Positions 35,907 through 46,680 of a stretch of 52,480 nt of DNA are shown here, piece by piece; the first letter of the stretch is position 1; the number at the start of each line of letters is the position of its first letter. A program made the translations under genes and the position numbers. The DNA comes from Bacteroidales bacterium (lineage in GTDB: Bacteria; Bacteroidota; Bacteroidia; Bacteroidales; Marinilabiliaceae), in the NCBI GenBank assembly GCA_022361295.1, contig JAKSBD010000732.1, positions 1 through 52,480 on the forward strand. The letters are read 5' to 3'. Below the pieces are notes generated by a model. That model ran no database searches. It was not told the DNA's origin and saw only the letters and a list, made by a program, of their open reading frames with translations.

Positions 35907-37234
35907 ATGGAGGGAAAAATATAGATACAGTTTTTAAAGACGGATTAAGCGATCATGAAGTTGCTCCTGACACATATGTTTGGGAGTCGATTGAGAAATC
36001 TATGAATAAGCATAAGCGTCAGGCGGCCGCAATTATAATGTGGCGAAGCGTGGCGGCAGCTTGTGTTATAGCTTTAATGACTGTAACAATAGTATTGCTC
36101 AATTCAGTGAGTGAACCATTGGTTAAGCAAACGGCAGAAGTAACGCCAGTCTTGGATCTGAAAATAACCGAAGACAAAAGTATTGTTGAGGAAGAAATCC
36201 CAATGGAAACAGAAAATAGTTCAAGGGAATTATTTCCGCCAAAAGCAAATAAGAATACTGTTCCAGGCGAGAAAGATAAACCAATAAAAGAATCAGTCGG
36301 CTCTTCATTTTCTACCTTGCATCAAGAGGCGAATAACATGAAGTATTTAGCTTCAATATCTGCAGTTGATTTAGGGGGCGATAATGAGTTGAATACTAAT
36401 TTGCATTCTCAAAATAAAAGGGTGTATTATTCAATTTATAATCCTTTAAATGCACCTTCATTTGAGAAAGTTAAAAAGAAAACCTCGATCAGTATTGGCG
36501 GAATTGTGTCGCCATCTTATAATTCAAAAATGTCATCAGGAGGTAATGAAGCTGTGATGGCTGCATCGGGTGTTGATGTAAACGAAAGTGGAATCAATTC
36601 ACTGGGGGGTGGTTTGCAGGTTAGGCTTAACACCGGTTCGCGCTGGAGTTTTGAAACTGGAGTTTTATATGCGCAGGTAGGTCAGGAAGTTAATAATGAA
36701 TATGGCTACAAGCATTCCAGGCAGGCTTTTCTGAGTCCTCAGATGAGTAATAGTGCAGGTGTATCTAATTCAATGGGGCCTATTAGAGTTAGTAAGGCAG
36801 TGCCGAATAATTATGCGGAGCCACTTGTCGACAACCTGGTTGAAGCTGCATTTAGTACTGTTAGTTCTGTTAATTCAGTTAAGCAAACGCTTGATTATAT
36901 TGAAATTCCGATGATGGCACGTTATTCTTTATTTAAAAGTTTCCCGTACTTGTCGGTGGCAGGTGGTATAAGCTCCAACTTTTTGATTGATAACTCTGCT
37001 TATGCTATTGATGGTGGTTCTGAACAAAAAATTGGTGAAACAGATGATATTAAGTCATTTGTATTAAGTAGTTCGCTAGGTTTAGGCGTTGAGTTACCAA
37101 TCTATAAATCCATTCACCTTAATGTGGAGCCACGTTTGAAGTACTTCCTGAATTCGGTGAGTTCTAATGCTGATTATAACTTCCAGCCATATTCATTTGG
37201 AGTGTATGGAGGGCTTACATTTGTGATTAAATAG
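35900..37234 (+). CDS. Putative anti-sigma factor with C-terminal outer-membrane beta-barrel
   Basis: Overlaps the sigma gene; N-terminal ID..F...L...EV.P...VW..I, one TM helix, C-terminal amphipathic strands (FETG, YIEIP). Confidence 0.75.
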   Translation: MLDGGKNIDTVFKDGLSDHEVAPDTYVWESIEKSMNKHKRQAAAIIMWRSVAAACVIALMTVTIVLLNSVSEPLVKQTAEVTPVLDLKITEDKSIVEEEIPMETENSSRELFPPKANKNTVPGEKDKPIKESVGSSFSTLHQEANNMKYLASISAVDLGGDNELNTNLHSQNKRVYYSIYNPLNAPSFEKVKKKTSISIGGIVSPSYNSKMSSGGNEAVMAASGVDVNESGINSLGGGLQVRLNTGSRWSFETGVLYAQVGQEVNNEYGYKHSRQAFLSPQMSNSAGVSNSMGPIRVSKAVPNNYAEPLVDNLVEAAFSTVSSVNSVKQTLDYIEIPMMARYSLFKSFPYLSVAGGISSNFLIDNSAYAIDGGSEQKIGETDDIKSFVLSSSLGLGVELPIYKSIHLNVEPRLKYFLNSVSSNADYNFQPYSFGVYGGLTFVIK

Positions 37235-39016
37235 CTATTTAAGAGATTCAATCATCTGATAAAATACGCCTTTTTGTAAGAGTAGTTCTTCAGGCTTGCC
37301 GGCTTCGGCTATTGTGCCATTTTTCATCACTACAATCATGTCGGCCAATTTAATGGTTGAAAGACGGTGACTGACAATAATGGCTGTTTTGTCCTCTGAA
37401 ATGTCCTTAAAATGCTCAATCAGGCTTGCTTCAGTAAATGCATCCAAAGAGCTTGTTGGTTCATCAAGAATGATAAGCTGAGCATCCGTATTATAAAATG
37501 AGCGAGCCAGGGCGGTTCGTTGCCATTCGCCGCGACTTAGCATTTGACTATCTTTGAATAAGGTCCCTAAAGTGGTGTCGTAGCCATCAGGAAGGTTGGA
37601 GAATATGTCGTGAAGTCCGGCACTTTTAGCTGCCGTTTGAATGGACGCTTTGGTGGAGTTTTTTTGTGTATTTCCGAAGTGAATATTGTCTTTAGCACTG
37701 ACATTGTAAAGCATAAAATCCTGAAAAATAACCGAGATATTCTGTGCTAGTTGCTCATTACTTATATCATTCCAATTACAATTGTCAACTAAAATTCTTC
37801 CGCTATTGGGCTTGTGTAAGCCACATAGCAGCTTTACCAAGGTGGTTTTTCCACTTCCGTTCTCACCAACCAGTGCAATGGTTTGGCCTTTGGGGATGCG
37901 CAGGTTAATGTTGTTTAATACCGGTTTACTGGAATTGGGATATTTGAAACAAAGATCTTTTATCTGAATATCATTGATGATTGGTTTTGGGAATGTTTCA
38001 GAAGCAGTTGCTTGTTTAATCTTAATATTTCTGAACTCAAAGAAATTTTTAAGGAACAGGTTGTCTTCATATAAGGATGACAAGTTACCAAGTAAACTTT
38101 GAAGGACTGAATAAGCCCTTTGAAGTGCCAGGAAATACATTGCCATTGTACCACTGGTAATGCCACCTTCAATGGTTTGTTTAATAACAAAGCCAATAAT
38201 TAAAAGCAGGATGATGGTAGCAAATAACTGTACTGTTACTTCATTAAGTGTTTTTGACTTAGAAAGGGACCATTGTTTATCGCGCAGGTCGTATTTAAAT
38301 CGTTCATACTCCAATTTAAACGTTTTACCAAGATTGAAAATGCGGAGCTCTTTAGCAAAATCTTTTGCGGTCAGCAGGCGGTTGTAATAATGAACACGCC
38401 GTTCATCTTCAGTGTGTTTTTTACGATACTGATATAGCCTGCGTGTATACAGAATTCTCAGGTAGAAAACAGGTGTGCTCGAAACAATTAATATGGGGAC
38501 CAGACTCCAATGTATATTTCCTAAAACAGCCAGTATTAAAATGATTGTCAGACTGTTTTGCATTAGCTGCAAAAGGCTGTAAAAAATACGTGCAGGACGA
38601 TAAGTGGAGTCACTTAAAGCCCTGTAAAAAATATTCTGGTAATTGGAATCTTCAAAATAACGATAGTCAATATTAATCGTTTTTTGGTGAATGATATTCT
38701 GTACAAAATCATTCACAAAATGACTCTGACGTTCTCGTACCAGGCTACTGACAGATCCGCTAACTGAATTAATAAGAAAAAATGCCGCTGTTAGGCCAAG
38801 TGTCGAATAAAGAAGTTGTAAATTTGATTCCGGATTAGTTATCTGTTGGCCTACAACATCAATTAATTGTTTTACTACATAAAGAAGCAGTAACGGCATG
38901 CAGCCTCTGACTACTGTTACCGCTGCATTGATATAGGTCCATTTGGGCGAACTTTTATATACAATTCGAATTGATTCAAGCAGGTGGTTTAGTGTGAGCT
39001 TATTGCCAGGTTTCAT
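37235..39016 (-). CDS. ABC exporter, fused permease and ATPase, no C39 peptidase domain
   Basis: TM domain, GENGSGKTT, IFQDF, LSRGEWQR, LDEPTSSLD, SHRLS. Confidence 0.92.
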   Translation of the reverse strand: MKPGNKLTLNHLLESIRIVYKSSPKWTYINAAVTVVRGCMPLLLLYVVKQLIDVVGQQITNPESNLQLLYSTLGLTAAFFLINSVSGSVSSLVRERQSHFVNDFVQNIIHQKTINIDYRYFEDSNYQNIFYRALSDSTYRPARIFYSLLQLMQNSLTIILILAVLGNIHWSLVPILIVSSTPVFYLRILYTRRLYQYRKKHTEDERRVHYYNRLLTAKDFAKELRIFNLGKTFKLEYERFKYDLRDKQWSLSKSKTLNEVTVQLFATIILLLIIGFVIKQTIEGGITSGTMAMYFLALQRAYSVLQSLLGNLSSLYEDNLFLKNFFEFRNIKIKQATASETFPKPIINDIQIKDLCFKYPNSSKPVLNNINLRIPKGQTIALVGENGSGKTTLVKLLCGLHKPNSGRILVDNCNWNDISNEQLAQNISVIFQDFMLYNVSAKDNIHFGNTQKNSTKASIQTAAKSAGLHDIFSNLPDGYDTTLGTLFKDSQMLSRGEWQRTALARSFYNTDAQLIILDEPTSSLDAFTEASLIEHFKDISEDKTAIIVSHRLSTIKLADMIVVMKNGTIAEAGKPEELLLQKGVFYQMIESLK

Positions 39017-39154
39017 TCAGGAATGATGTGATGATTAAATTACTAAAATAGCATAAAATTAAGAGGGACTGAGTACAATGTTGCAATTATTGATGTCTCC
39101 ATCGTTTTTTTTTCTTACTATTATGCCTGATCACTTCTAATCCGTCGTACTTAT

Positions 39155-39589
39155 TTAACGGAGTTTAGTTTTAATTCGCCCTGAATAAAAAAACAGGCGA
39201 CCGGTATAGAATGTCAGCTGTGGCATTAGTCTTTTAAATACCCGAAACCAACCTTTCTTGCAATTTTTAGTTTCATTATTGCGTCTTCGGCTGATAACAG
39301 TACCTAATACCTTCTCGTAAGGTACAGGATGATCCGGGTAGATAAGACCATCTCCTTTAAAATGGTATGCGGTATTACTGATCTTATAAACTCTGTGGGC
39401 GATCAGCTTTCTCTGACCAATAAATACACCAATATCGCCTTTTTGAGGCTTTACAGGATTAACCAATAAAACGTCGCCTGGTAGAAGGAGTGGAAACATA
39501 CTCATTCCAAAGGCTGGTACCTCAACCTGCTTTCCTTCCTGAAGAAAATGAATTAAGGTTGTTTGTATGTTTTTATTTTCCAAACTCAT
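39155..39589 (-). CDS. S24/S26 family peptidase (Ser/His type)
   Basis: G.SMFPLL.PGD, IAHRV, KGD...D motifs. Confidence 0.8.
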   Translation of the reverse strand: MSLENKNIQTTLIHFLQEGKQVEVPAFGMSMFPLLLPGDVLLVNPVKPQKGDIGVFIGQRKLIAHRVYKISNTAYHFKGDGLIYPDHPVPYEKVLGTVISRRRNNETKNCKKGWFRVFKRLMPQLTFYTGRLFFYSGRIKTKLR

Positions 39590-40478
39590 GTAAAATCATC
39601 TCAACAATATCTGTGTCTGGTTTAAATCCACATTCGTAAATGCCGCATGTTTCTGACAGGCTGATGACGGCATTAAGTCTGTTATGTACCTGATTGTTAT
39701 CGTATTGAAACTGCATGCAATTACTTAATAAGCCAAGTGCTCCTTTTAGAACAGGAAGTTTTTTAAAATAGTTATCAGGTGACTGCTTGATTAAGAATAG
39801 CTTGTGTAAAGCAACGCCTTTACTGCTATCCTGGTAATAAGGCATTGGAGTATTATAAGCTTTAAAGGAATCGCCATCAGGAAGAATGATTAAACGATCA
39901 TCGTTAATAATTGTAGCACCACATTTTTTCCATAAACCGGCCATAGTTGATTTACCGATTCCCGAAATAGCCGAGAAAAGATAGCCTTTGCCTTTATAAT
40001 CTATGGTTGAAGCATGGATAACAAAACCACCATAAAAGTGAACGATATATTGCAGTAATAAGATGCCAAGAGGATGGAAGAACGGATCTATAATAATTTC
40101 CGAAGTGCTGTTGGTAGTGATTTGTATATCAACTAAATTCTGATTGGAATCAACAAAGGCAATGGCCTCATTTACAATGGCGCTATCGTCAAAAACAACA
40201 TAAACACCTTCCAAAGCATCTTTTTTTATAATGCTCCATTTATAAGGTAAGTCCTCTTCAAACTTTTCAGAGCCCTTAAATATTTCTTTCCAGTCGCCTG
40301 GCAGTTTTTTATTGTTGGTGTGGATATTAAAAGTCCAGGTGGTCTTTGGGGTAGTTGGATTTTCCTGAAAAAGATGACTTCCTCCTTTACTGTCAAAAAC
40401 AAAATTGGGGGATAAGGAATTGACTTTAAACCTTATACCCCCAATTGAATAGTTTCTTGTATTTTCTGATTTGATCAT
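39573..40478 (-). CDS. HprK-related / ScmC-like P-loop protein (putative peptide kinase)
   Basis: IHAS, Walker A AISGIGKST, INDD, as in the HprK/PEPCK-type P-loop fold. Confidence 0.72.
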   Translation of the reverse strand: MIKSENTRNYSIGGIRFKVNSLSPNFVFDSKGGSHLFQENPTTPKTTWTFNIHTNNKKLPGDWKEIFKGSEKFEEDLPYKWSIIKKDALEGVYVVFDDSAIVNEAIAFVDSNQNLVDIQITTNSTSEIIIDPFFHPLGILLLQYIVHFYGGFVIHASTIDYKGKGYLFSAISGIGKSTMAGLWKKCGATIINDDRLIILPDGDSFKAYNTPMPYYQDSSKGVALHKLFLIKQSPDNYFKKLPVLKGALGLLSNCMQFQYDNNQVHNRLNAVISLSETCGIYECGFKPDTDIVEMILHEFGK

Positions 40479-40480
40479 TC

Positions 40481-40696
40481 TTACATATTCGAAAAATCTG
40501 GACTATCTCCACCAAAAGGATATTCGGCAGAAGATGGATTTTCAAACTTAGGAGCAGCTTCCGCTGGTGCTTCTGCTGCGCTAGGAGCAGGAAAAGGCGG
40601 TTCAATAGGTCCATCGCTAACCATAAACAGGCATGTGTCTAGGTCGTTAAAATGCTCCTCAATGTCAGGTTTGATATATTTTCGTTTAATCGTCAT
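40481..40696 (-). CDS. Putative RiPP precursor peptide
   Basis: 71 aa from ATG 40696 (73 from TTG 40702); KRKYIKPDI leader motif; fills the gap between RRE and kinase genes. Confidence 0.7.
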   Translation of the reverse strand: MTIKRKYIKPDIEEHFNDLDTCLFMVSDGPIEPPFPAPSAAEAPAEAAPKFENPSSAEYPFGGDSPDFSNM

Positions 40697-40714
40697 TCCC
40701 AAAATAGCTTCTCT

Positions 40715-41008
40715 TTATAGCTCTTTAATTATACCATTAGCAACAGCTTTCTTTAAGAATTGTTCCAAATCCTTTTCAGCTGTTTGTTTATCTACTTCGA
40801 ATTCATTCAAAATCAACTCAATAATTTCCCCTGTTGATTTCTCCGAATTCATGTTATTATATATAAAAGAACCAATTTCATTAAGCGAGAATACCTTCTC
40901 CATTTGCGCAACTGTTCCAACAAGAGGTACAACTACCGTTTCGTTTCCCACAGTTTTTTCAACAAAGCCAGTTTGCTTTATATACAGCTTACTTCTCACT
41001 AATTTCAT
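40715..41008 (-). CDS. PqqD family protein (stand-alone RiPP recognition element)
   Basis: 97 aa; VG.E.VVVP, FSLNEIGSFIY, EFEVD...AEKDL.QFL. Confidence 0.92.
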   Translation of the reverse strand: MKLVRSKLYIKQTGFVEKTVGNETVVVPLVGTVAQMEKVFSLNEIGSFIYNNMNSEKSTGEIIELILNEFEVDKQTAEKDLEQFLKKAVANGIIKEL

Positions 41009-41020
41009 TTAAAACTTTGG

Positions 41021-41028
41021 CAAAAATA
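41021..41028 (-). promoter_or_regulatory. -7 promoter element for the PqqD cassette
   Basis: Minus strand TATTTTTG, 12 nt before the ATG. Confidence 0.55.
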
Positions 41029-41133
41029 TAAAAAAACATATTTCAAGCACTTAATTGGGCTAAAAGAAATGATTAATTTGACTAATGACTGAATTCTTTG
41101 TTTAAAAATTCAATTTCTTTTATCCTTTTTATC

Positions 41134-42262: not shown

Positions 42263-45200
42263 TTGTATGTTTTGGGGGCACTAATTATAGTACCCCTAAT
42301 GTTATATTCTATATTATTGCTTCCTTCTGTTCAAACCTCTGTTGTTAGCTATATTACCAAAGAGCTCAGCGAAGATTTAGATACCGAAATTTCCATCAAA
42401 CGTGTTCATTTACGGCCATTTAAGACCTTGGTTTTGGATGAAGTAATAGTGTTTGATCAGCATGCTGATACGCTGTTAGCGATAAATCGAATTTCTGCTA
42501 ATATTGATTCTATCTATTTCAGAAGAAAAAGCTTGTATCTGAAGGATCTCCAAATTTCAGTTCCACAGATTAATGTGTCAAAAAAAGATTCGTTGTATAA
42601 CTTCTCGTTTCTTTTAGACGCGTTGCAACCGGGACAGAGAAAGAAAGATGATGACAATGCATGGAATATAAGTTTGAATAACCTTGGAATTGATGATGGA
42701 AAACTGAGTTACGATATCGATTCAGTGGGTACACATATGGAAGTCTCCAACCTCTTAATGCAAATCAATAATATTCATCAGGATAGTTTATGGCATTTTG
42801 GTTTGAGTGAGTTGTCATTTAAAAGTACAAATGGATTTAATGTTATAAAAGCAGAAGGGCAATTGAGTTTCAATAAGTCACATTTGACTTTTAGTCAGGG
42901 ACTGTTTGAAACACAAAATTCATCGTTGCAAATTGATTCCATCGATGTAGAGATGTTTCCTGATAAAGAAGGGATAGATAGGTTTGGGCAATTTTATTTA
43001 AATGTAGATCGCTCAATTGTTAATGATGATGACATCTCCTTTCTTACGGGAAAAACAATTAGGTTTCCTGAAATACGATTGTCGGGACTGGTAACCGGAA
43101 CAATCGACAATATAAGAGGTAGAGGTGTAAAGCTTCAGTTTGGGCCGCACTCCCAAATAAGCTCAAGTTTCGATATTGACGGACTACCTGATATAGATCA
43201 AACTTTTTTATACCTGAACGTGCGACATCTTAAAACGACGCCCGGTGATCTGGAGCGTCTCTTTTCAAGGGTGAAAGGACAAGCACTTCATTTGCCAAAT
43301 GCAATTCGAAACCTCGATCAAATTACCTATTCAGGTAGTTTTACCGGCTTCGTTACCGATATAGTGGCATATGGAGAGTTTAATACAGCTCTGGGTAAAA
43401 TTAATACAGATATCGGCTTGAAGATAGATGCCTCTGATAAACTGGTTTTTTCAGGTAACCTATCAACACAGCAATTTAACGTTGGCAAACTGGCAGGGGC
43501 TGAAGATCATATTGGTAACGTGTCAATGTCTGTCGCCATTAATGGTCACAGGCAATCGGCAGATAACTACAGTGCTTTTTTAAGTGGAGTGGTTGATACG
43601 ATTACAGTAAATAATTATGCATACAAAAACATCAGGCTTAACGGCTTGTTTGCCAATAATAAGTTTGATGGCGACTTTTTAATCGATGACCCAAACGGAC
43701 AGCTCGGCTTTAACGGGAAAATAGATTTATCAGGTGAAGTACCCAACTTTAGTTTTATAGCCCACCTGACCGAAATTAATCTTGATCAGCTGAATCTGTA
43801 TAAAAAACATACTAACGCTGTTTTAACTGCTGATATAGAAACTGAAATTTCAGGGAGTGAAATTAATGATATTGTCGGTTTTCTGAATGTTAGTAATCTA
43901 AACTATCAGTATGAAAAGGGTGAAGTCTCAATTGATTCGCTTTTGCTTATTTCTGTCAGGGAAGGAGAACGTAAACGAATTGTTCTTCAGTCAGATATTG
44001 CAGAAGGTGATTTGGTTGGAGTTTATAATTTCACCCACATTGGCAATATGCTGAAACAAAACCTTACCGACTTTCTCCCTGCATTAAAAACACAGGTCAA
44101 TATTAAGGAGAAGGATATAAAGGAAAATGATTTCACTTTTTCTTGTACGTTTAAAAGGATTTCAGACCTTGTTACCTTGCTTAATCCTGAAATTGAGGTT
44201 TCAGATAATGGGCTGTTGTTGGGAAATTATAATACAACAACCGGAGAAATTGATTTGGAGGCTGAGATTCAGTATCTGAATTATAAGGGAATCAGAGCAG
44301 TGCATCCCGAAATACATATATCTACAGATAATGATGATAAACTATCTGTAGTTTCGCGCTTAAAGGATTTAAATATCAATAACCTGGGTTCTTTTCAAAA
44401 TCTTAGTTTTCATCAAACAGCCTATAATGATACACTTAAGTTTAATGTATTCTGGAACAACTGGGATGAATATACCAATAGCGGATCTATTTTAACGACT
44501 ACTTCATTGAGATCGCGTGAAAATGGTTTATTTGCAACCACGCAACTATTACCTTCATATGTGATGGTTCATGATAGTCTTTGGGAAGTTCAGTCAACCA
44601 CCTTACATTATCACCCCGACGGCTTTTCAGTTAAAAACTTTCGGGTACATCGTGGAAATCAGGAGATTGGAATTAATGGTTTTGTGCACCGTCATGTAAA
44701 AGACGGTATGCGCGTTCATTTCCAGAATATTAATCTGTCCGATGTGATTGGTTACCAGGATATGAAGCAGGTTGAAGTGAAAGGCTTTCTTAATGGAACA
44801 CTTGATGTTCAACAGTTGTATACTTCGCCGGTGATAAGTGGAAATTTAAGTATAAACGATTTCAACTTTAACAATGATGCATTAGGTGATTTTGAAATTA
44901 TTGCCGATTATCTTCCTCAAGAGCACCAGATAGAGATTGAGTCCAATGTGACTAAAGGAAATAGTAAGCCTCTCGCGGGCGGCGGTCTAATTGACCTGGA
45001 GCAGCAACAGGTTAACTTAAATTATGACATTGACAGTCTTGAAATAGGCTTTCTGAATTTATACCTCAGTAAGGTTATGCAAAACCTGTCGGGTAATGCC
45101 AGTGGGAGATTATCTGTTGTTGGACCTTTGTCGGCGCCCGAGCTACTTGGGGCCCTAAATATTAATAAGGCCTTTTTTGATGTTAATCTTCTGCAAACCA

Positions 45201-46680
45201 CTTATTCAATAACAGACTCGGTTTTGTTTAAGCCAAACCTGATTGAATTTAAGGGAATACACCTTTCTGACCGAAATGGTAAGCAGGGTACTTTTGATGG
45301 TACAATCCAGCATCAGTCTTTCAGAAATATGCGGTATGATTTGCGATTAATCACTAATAATATGCTGGTTATGGATACTAAGTATACTGATAATCCGCTG
45401 TATTATGGTGAGGTTTATGCCGATGGAAATATGTCAGTAACCGGTACAACCAAGGATCTGGTGATAGACATTGGAGGTCGTACAATGGAGAATACGCAAT
45501 TTTTTATTCCTCTTACTGATGAAGAAAGTGCCGAAGAAAGCAGTTTTATTCGTTTTATTAATACCTCTAAAGAAGAAGGTGAAGACGGTGAGGATGTTAT
45601 GCAATCGGACGAGTATGAGATTGACTTAACCGGTATGACTGTGAGTATGGATCTGGATATAACGCCCGATGCCCGATGCCAGGTTATTTTTGATTCGAAA
45701 GTGGGTGACATTTTAAAGGGACAGGGAAATGGTAATCTGCAAATACAGATGGATAAAGAAGGTGGTATCGTGTTCTTCGGAGATTTTGATTTTGAAGATG
45801 GAGACTATATGTTTACCCTTCAAAATGTATTGAATAAGAAATTTGTGATTAACAGAGGTTCGTCCATACATTGGGATGGAAACCCATATGATGCCATTAT
45901 TGACCTGAATGCAACTTATAACCTGAAAACGAGCTTGCTTGATCTGACAGGTGATTTTTCAGAAGAAGCACAGAGAGAATACGGGCGAAGAATACCGGTG
46001 CATTGTAATATGTTATTAACAGATCGCCTGACACGACCTAATGTGAAGTTTGAAATAAAGACGCCGTCAACCCAGGATAATAACCAAAACATATTGATTC
46101 GTACATCAATACCGAAGAGGAGACCAATCGCCAGGTATTGTCACTGTTGGTGCTTAATAAATTCTATACTCAGGAAACAAGTACTGCCAATAGCGGTGTA
46201 ACATCAGGTAACAATGCCGCACTGGTTACCACTACCGAGATGTTATCCAATCAATTGAGTCATTGGTTGTCGCAAATCAGTCGCGATGTTGATATTGGTG
46301 TGAGTTACCGACCGGCCAGTGAGTTGAGTGATGATGAGGTTGAAGTGGCACTCTCGACACAAATGTTTAATAATCGCGTGGTTGTCAACGGCAACGTAGG
46401 ATACGGAAGGGATCAAACACGTCCGAGTAACCTTATTGGTGATTTTGACGTTGAGGTTAAACTGAATAACTCAGGAAGTATCAGGGCCAAAGCATATACA
46501 CGCACCAACAATGACCTTGTGTATTCAACCAATACATCGCCTACCACACAGGGTGTAGGTGTTTCGTTTAAAGAGGAATTTGATACTTTAGAAGAATTAA
46601 TGCACAAGTATTGGTTAAAGATTTCAGGCAAAAACAAAGACAAAGAAAAGAAGAGTACTTCCAAAGAGACTAAAGAATAA
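42263..46680 (+). pseudogene. tamB: TamB (translocation/assembly module) gene split by a -1 frameshift near 46090; may be a sequencing error
   Basis: 42263..46201 and 46138..46680 join into one ~1470-aa TamB-like protein; the second frame reads IDSYINTEEETNRQVLSLLVLNKF from 46093. Confidence 0.8.

Follow-up and report, generated by a model that had tools for sequence, protein, structure and literature searches.

The best described counterpart of the locus analysed here is the linear polyphosphorylated peptide (LPP) pathway of Bacillota, encoded by lppA-K-B-S-D-N clusters in Paenibacillus alginolyticus (Popov et al., 2026; PMC13381572). In that report, the LPP set comprises a RiPP (peptide made on the ribosome and modified after translation) recognition element (RRE), a signal-peptidase-like protease, an HprK kinase, an MsbA-like exporter and a nucleoside triphosphate (NTP) transferase. 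Polyphosphorylation of Ser by LppK and RRE-dependent cleavage by LppS were shown there; which product is finally made, what the NTP transferase does and what the peptides are for were left open. LPPs were called restricted to Bacillota and patchily distributed, and this patchiness was tied to conflict systems. The LPP dataset contains five Bacteroidota peptidases, which fall into clusters 8, 10 and 26, outside cluster 1, and for which no precursors are given; Bacteroidota are not named in the main text. In the literature covered, from which most subscription papers are missing, we found neither a description of the pathway in Bacteroidota nor a report connecting it with type IX secretion. In this study, we analysed a five-gene cassette on a contig of a Bacteroidales bacterium of the family Marinilabiliaceae (JAKSBD010000732.1, assembly GCA_022361295.1). 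The window is the whole stretch of 52,480 nucleotides, i.e., contig C125 of genome G000 (G000, C125, g64 and L-numbers are identifiers of this analysis), and the closest named relatives of this genome are Carboxylicivirga species. The cassette encodes a stand-alone RRE, a precursor peptide, an HprK-like kinase, a signal-peptidase-I-like peptidase and an ATP-binding cassette (ABC) exporter. It is, in our judgement, fairly probable that these genes form the maturation operon of a lineage in Bacteroidota that is sister to the LPP pathway, and that the products of the operon are envelope partners of type IX cargo proteins.

The cassette comprises five of the six LPP core genes, and the sixth, a nucleotidyltransferase (the NTP transferase of LPPs), is found elsewhere in G000. 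A sequence-only reading of the window had proposed a linear, probably phosphorylated peptide of an undescribed class. By analogy the pathway type was judged correctly, as the gene set is the LPP core; the novelty of the class did not hold, because this enzyme set had already been described for Bacillota and put to the test there (Popov et al., 2026). The RRE matches PF05402 with 57.7 bits (cut-off 23.4), is the sole PqqD match in G000 and matches the LppB chain 9x8z_B (E 2e-5). It shares with LPPs the discrete RRE with an Asn/Asp/Phe pocket: among 24 sequences N43 is invariant and D80 and F84 are kept in at least 90%, and the three residues align to N33, D70 and F74 of LppB. The P-loop protein matched HprK-related families only below cut-off. 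The top folds for its model (predicted local distance difference test, pLDDT, 91) are HPr kinase, in first place, and phosphoenolpyruvate (PEP) carboxykinase, and H155, G173, G175, K176, T178, D193 and D194 (His, Walker A, Asp-Asp) are invariant in 29/29 sequences. These folds and residues support the HprK-like identity that had been read from the sequence. The peptidase reaches 39.6 bits with TIGR02228, below the cut-off of 51.85, has weak S24/S26 and signal peptidase I matches and is the sole S26-profile match in G000. S30, H65, D80 and D86 are invariant in 27/27 sequences, and S30, H65 and D86 correspond to S29, H68 and D93 of LppS in an alignment compared by eye; the catalytic Ser, His and Asp of a signal-peptidase-I-like enzyme are thus common to both systems. 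As in LPP clusters, an HprK-like kinase and an MsbA-like exporter belong to the cluster, and the locus has no macrolactam cyclase, which fits a linear product.

As in LPPs, the precursors have a YxxP leader and, a short way past the predicted cut, a conserved Ser. Tyr, Pro (+3) and Asp (+11) do not vary among the 30 cassette precursors, each of which also carries Ser/Thr 20 residues after the Tyr; Leu (+16) occurs in 28/30 and a PFG-type tail in 27/30. The corresponding leader residues of the window precursor are Y7, P10, D18 and L23, and S27 is the predicted phospho-acceptor. Compared with LPPs, the leader keeps YxxPx[IL] and a late Ser/Thr, which lies at Y+20 instead of Y+18, and has the invariant Asp at +11. 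A precursor profile matched 678 clusters of a representative library at E<=0.001, while a single-sequence search found only five proteins. Among the best 150 library matches, which were chosen by the same profile and of which one was set aside, 149 could be aligned on YxxP, and Ser/Thr stands at +20 in 148 of the 149. The ratio of non-synonymous to synonymous polymorphism (pN/pS) is 0.47 in the leader and 0.28 in the tail (18 genus sequences, uncorrected). A structural model of the peptidase, the RRE and precursor residues 1-36 scored 0.76, the best control 0.47. The score mark was reached by 116/157 solved and 2/215 mismatched pairs, counts that apply only roughly to this complex. The runs share at least 90% of contacts and the partners have a pLDDT of at least 69. 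In this model, RRE residues 43, 80 and 84 contact precursor residues 9-11, and the peptidase stretches with S30, H65 and D86 sit in the interface. The model supports the predicted binding of the YxxP leader by the RRE.

The sequence-only reading had allowed for another enzyme encoded elsewhere, and a genome search bore this out: G000 has a single NTP_transf_5 gene, on another contig than the cassette (G000:C250:11313-12404). Absent from the window locus, the nucleotidyltransferase is present in 92 of the 96 family genomes that are at least 90% complete. Its co-occurrence with the kinase was assessed in a sample of 251 genomes of the class. Of these, 38 had a match to the kinase profile, and 14 weak matches among them were dropped (E 3e-5 or worse, little coverage beyond the P-loop); 13 of these lie in frames of 529-568 aa and one in a frame of 201 aa, and they are probably PEP carboxykinases. 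The nucleotidyltransferase was above cut-off in 24/24 kinase-positive genomes vs. 2/227 others, or in 24/38 vs. 2/213 if the weak matches are retained, with the reservation that kin genomes are not independent. In four loci of genus g64 the gene directly adjoins the peptidase.

The pathway is a core, single-copy part of the family and is not patchy. The kinase was matched in 44/61 relatives, including 36/36 others of the family, and in 93 of the 96 family genomes, where it is single-copy in all but G071. The exporter was matched at E<=1e-95 in 89/96 and the precursor profile in 81/96 of these genomes. Gene order was read at all 36 family loci of relatives with the kinase. The sequence-only reading had treated the five genes as a set, and a check of their co-occurrence found them in the same order behind tsaD in 17/17 other genomes of the genus and in 6/19 genomes of other genera of the family; the set is therefore not a chance arrangement. 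The remaining loci of other genera hold RRE-precursor-kinase (6), RRE-kinase (3), RRE-kinase-peptidase with or without the exporter (2), or a kinase that stands alone or is truncated at a contig end (2). Where the peptidase is absent from the locus, it is encoded elsewhere in 5/5 genomes checked. From gene order and peptidase relocation it follows that the system passes down as core genes and persists even when its parts are dispersed. As side observations, genus g13 has the kinase and the nucleotidyltransferase in 18/18 genomes and the precursor profile in only 4/18, its substrates probably being diverged or encoded elsewhere. One of the two kinase copies of G071 lies at L221 (G071:C1:2207000-2226900), flanked by ORFs (open reading frames) that we take to be transposase-like, followed by two convergent cargos of the type described below.

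In the proposed pathway, the RRE would bind the YxxP leader and the HprK-like kinase would phosphorylate Ser27. The S26 peptidase would then remove the leader; a cut after Met25 is predicted from the register of Ile, Phe and Thr in the LPP leader (-5, -3, -1) with Ile, Leu and Met in the family. Cleavage would yield an acidic core of 46 aa (4694 Da unmodified, ~4.7 kDa) with phospho-Ser at position 2. The unlinked nucleotidyltransferase would modify this phospho-Ser by adding a further group, and the ABC protein would export the linear product. By analogy with the LPP work, each chemical step, the cut site and the role of the nucleotidyltransferase are likely. Several observations speak against this assignment. 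The LPP leader consensus YxxPxVLxHQxIxFETxxS is not kept, as the spacing differs and HQ and FET are absent here, and the score of the complex could stem from likeness to solved RRE-leader structures, so that it shows likeness and not binding. Deletion of lppN changed nothing detectably in the LPP work (Popov et al., 2026), which bears on the role given to the nucleotidyltransferase. Identity between the G000 nucleotidyltransferase and the g64 copies next to the cassette is only 18-21%, no conserved neighbours were found around genes of the G000 type, and the enzyme was not found in G024, which has the other pathway genes. In addition, the exporter was not found in 5/5 g64 genomes at E<=1e-60, and therefore export by this protein is not universal. 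The cassette works like the LPP pathway but is not filed as a member of it, because the leader consensus and an NTP transferase within the cluster are lacking, the latter gene being unlinked here. Further differences are the phylum and the setting, i.e., a single-copy core locus beside tsaD as opposed to patchy LPPs in capsule loci, together with a conserved aromatic C-terminal tail and several scattered precursors, many behind type IX cargo genes. New are thus the Bacteroidota setting, the core-genome status, the scattered substrates and the link to type IX surface proteins.

Four further precursor-like ORFs with the same leader were found in G000, which has only one RRE, one kinase and one peptidase; one enzyme set likely serves all five precursors. 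The one on C587 (C587:753-941) immediately follows a gene that carries a type IX sorting domain. The three other ORFs have no cargo upstream (C544:280-537, C343:13584-13781 and C414:3587-3700), the last of them lying behind a leucine-rich-repeat gene at a contig end. In 19 of 20 second-copy loci, hand-picked across genera, the precursor is directly 3' of a type IX cargo gene with the same domain. This unnamed domain of 165 aa precedes the sorting domain (C-terminal domain, CTD) and is common to the second-copy cargos, to giants of ~3000 aa that adjoin other precursors and cassettes, and to cargos found in other families; in G000 it was located at L125:6-488 (G000:C587; alignment A6). Its model is all-beta and confident (pLDDT 92), no Foldseek match was obtained at E<=0.001, a separate structure comparison gave a best Z of 5.1 (root-mean-square deviation 3.6 over 91 residues), so that no fold was assigned, and NCBIfam holds no family for it. 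In the class-wide sample the precursor family occurs in 8/251 genomes with 31 matches, 7 in cassettes and 24 outside. Of the latter, 17 directly follow a cargo that has the pre-CTD domain, one of them identified from its coordinates and the other 16 by script; 5 do not and 2 are unclear. In G272, four cargo-peptide pairs precede the cassette on a single contig, and the two cargos scanned differ in their body. G323 (95% complete) has a cargo-peptide pair, and RRE, kinase and nucleotidyltransferase were not detected in it. In the g64 members G132 and G245, in which kinase and precursor were not detected, the pre-CTD scores are far lower.

The gene linkage suggests that the peptides are partners of cargo proteins and not antibiotics. 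The products would act as cell-envelope partners of type IX surface proteins, because the system is single-copy core and the scattered precursors have been copied along with the C-terminal module of certain cargos. The following points weigh against such a role. The window precursor and three of its four G000 paralogues have no cargo directly upstream, and of the 81 CTD matches in G000 only one has a detected precursor behind it. The linkage in 19 of the 20 loci largely reflects one inherited locus, kin not being independent. Moreover, the pre-CTD domain occurs in 155/251 Bacteroidia genomes (a tally that takes in G206, flagged unpublished, as one genome), most of them without the pathway; a strict dependence of the domain on the pathway was rejected for this reason. 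It is tempting to speculate, with considerable doubt, on a housekeeping envelope machine outside secondary metabolism, in which phosphorylated and further nucleotidylated or glycosylated peptides might be the dedicated anchor, tether or folding aid of a type IX surface-protein subfamily recognised via the pre-CTD domain.

The same chemistry could also make free diffusible signals or weapons, cargo adjacency then being a matter of co-expression or of hitch-hiking on duplications. A dedicated exporter in the family would suit such products, as would the cores, which differ in length and sequence, the lack of a cargo neighbour for most precursors of G000 and the prevalence of the domain in genomes without the pathway. 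We hold this to be unlikely. Inheritance as a single-copy core system does not resemble the patchiness that was tied to conflict systems (Popov et al., 2026), and an immunity or receptor gene is absent from the five-gene loci. The same domain-plus-peptide tail is kept by cargos whose bodies differ (Big_5, FG-GAP, choice-of-anchor Q), and the eight best pre-CTD scores belong to exactly the eight genomes with the precursor family, a ranking that is partly circular since the profile was built from the same lineages. Less probable still, with a small chance at best, is that the peptides, once modified and cut, act within the cell or at its inner membrane, as in the handling of cargo before secretion, with the ABC protein carrying a lipid- or sugar-linked derivative or something else. 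In the five-gene loci the peptidase gene lies next to that of the exporter, and in G045 and G281 the exporter and the S26 peptidase form a fusion, as fits coupled cutting and export; set against this are the lipid and glycan flippases MsbA, HepA and PglK as the exporter's nearest families, and the five g64 genomes without detected exporter, whose cores have a basic Trp-rich tail.

If the peptides are indeed envelope partners of type IX cargos, RiPP chemistry would serve surface-protein assembly in Bacteroidota, many unannotated small ORFs behind cargo genes would gain a function, and LPP-type peptides would obtain their first function, together with a new accessory step for one type IX cargo class. 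The enzyme set is fixed and single-copy in a family with named cultured members, in which one knock-out should remove all products, and the link of the peptides to one type IX cargo subfamily gives a concrete phenotype to test.

Two further described systems resemble the cassette in part. Paeninodin-type lasso clusters have a discrete RRE, a [Y/W]xxP leader, an HprK-like kinase, an NTP transferase and an ABC exporter (as described in Popov et al., 2026). They differ from the cassette by the macrolactam cyclase and by the B2 cysteine protease, in place of which a serine peptidase probably removes the leader here. SynChlorMet cassettes also combine a PqqD-like with an HprK-related P-loop protein (ScmD, ScmC), but TIGR04249 and TIGR04248 stayed far below cut-off here (22.1 of 125 and 21.2 of 100 bits) and the locus has no radical SAM enzyme. 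Cyclase, B2 protease, radical SAM enzyme and nucleotidyltransferase are absent from the locus, in agreement with the sequence-only reading, and a search of G000 for an orphan cyclase or radical SAM gene found AsnB-like genes and one SPASM gene, both in unrelated contexts. A decayed lasso or SynChlorMet-like cluster, or one with its ring-forming enzymes encoded elsewhere, is very improbable despite the shared YxxP leader, RRE and HprK kinase and the AsnB-like and SPASM genes of G000, as the B2 protease is missing from G000 and above cut-off in 0/96 family genomes (8 weak matches below), the AsnB-like genes with intact start begin like glutamine amidotransferases, two of them among polysaccharide genes, the SPASM gene lacks a PqqD domain and sits among housekeeping-type genes, and invariant active sites and family-wide retention are unlike a remnant. 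A lasso remnant was rejected on the protease and the contexts of the AsnB-like genes, and a radical-SAM partner on the SPASM gene, which has no link to the locus.

Features of the cassette in the window, with the basis of each assignment
Feature	Length	Position	Strand	Basis
Candidate promoter -7 box TAnnTTTG		41021..41028	-	sequence and recurrence upstream of RRE genes
Stand-alone PqqD/RRE, LppB-like	97 aa	40715..41008	-	PF05402 above cut-off
Precursor peptide	71 aa	40481..40696	-	YxxP leader, Pro-rich acidic spacer, PFGG-type tail
HprK-like kinase, LppK-like	301 aa	39573..40478	-	invariant active-site residues, fold match
Signal-peptidase-I-like (S24/S26) leader peptidase, LppS-like	144 aa	39155..39589	-	invariant catalytic residues
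MsbA-like ABC exporter, LppD-like	593 aa	37235..39016	-	membrane and ATPase domain, without peptidase domain

The five ORFs were recovered with the coordinates read from the sequence, including the 2-nt gap between precursor and kinase and the 17-nt overlap of kinase and peptidase. The flanks also agree, with tsaD upstream and a convergent gene ending at 37234, and a profile scan found only the membrane and the ATPase domain in the exporter, as had been claimed. The GC content of the five-gene locus equals that of its flanks. Scans of the window for sigma-70 promoters and terminators were at chance level (sigma-70, 14 vs. 14.8 expected); a TAnnTTTG box, presumably the Bacteroidota -7 promoter consensus, lies 16-30 nt ahead of the RRE start in 16/25 loci vs. 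13% of shuffles, and the copy listed in the table is likely the predicted -7 element. About 50 nt upstream of it, a GTCAAA element (41077-41082, minus strand) was seen by eye to return upstream of most RRE genes in the family and is possibly a regulator site.

Some further observations concern neighbouring genes. A methyltransferase-like gene of ~250 aa lies ahead of the cargo-peptide pair in most family genomes (L190:9867-10622; most of L190-L209), its best match being a daptide RiPP methyltransferase below cut-off (32 of 175 bits). In two g64 cassettes a protein of ~355 aa is encoded among the precursors just before the RRE (L211:7216-8277, L210:6841-7911); it has no Pfam or NCBIfam match and is a possible extra enzyme. 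The g64 cores (L236-L259), with the Trp-rich tail mentioned above, are short and amphipathic-looking. Finally, a gene that we take to be TamB-like is present in the window as two plus-strand ORFs (42263-46201 and 46138-46680; 1312 and 180 aa). Homologues in the family consist of one ORF of about 1460-1510 aa, and the split is a frameshift or an assembly error.

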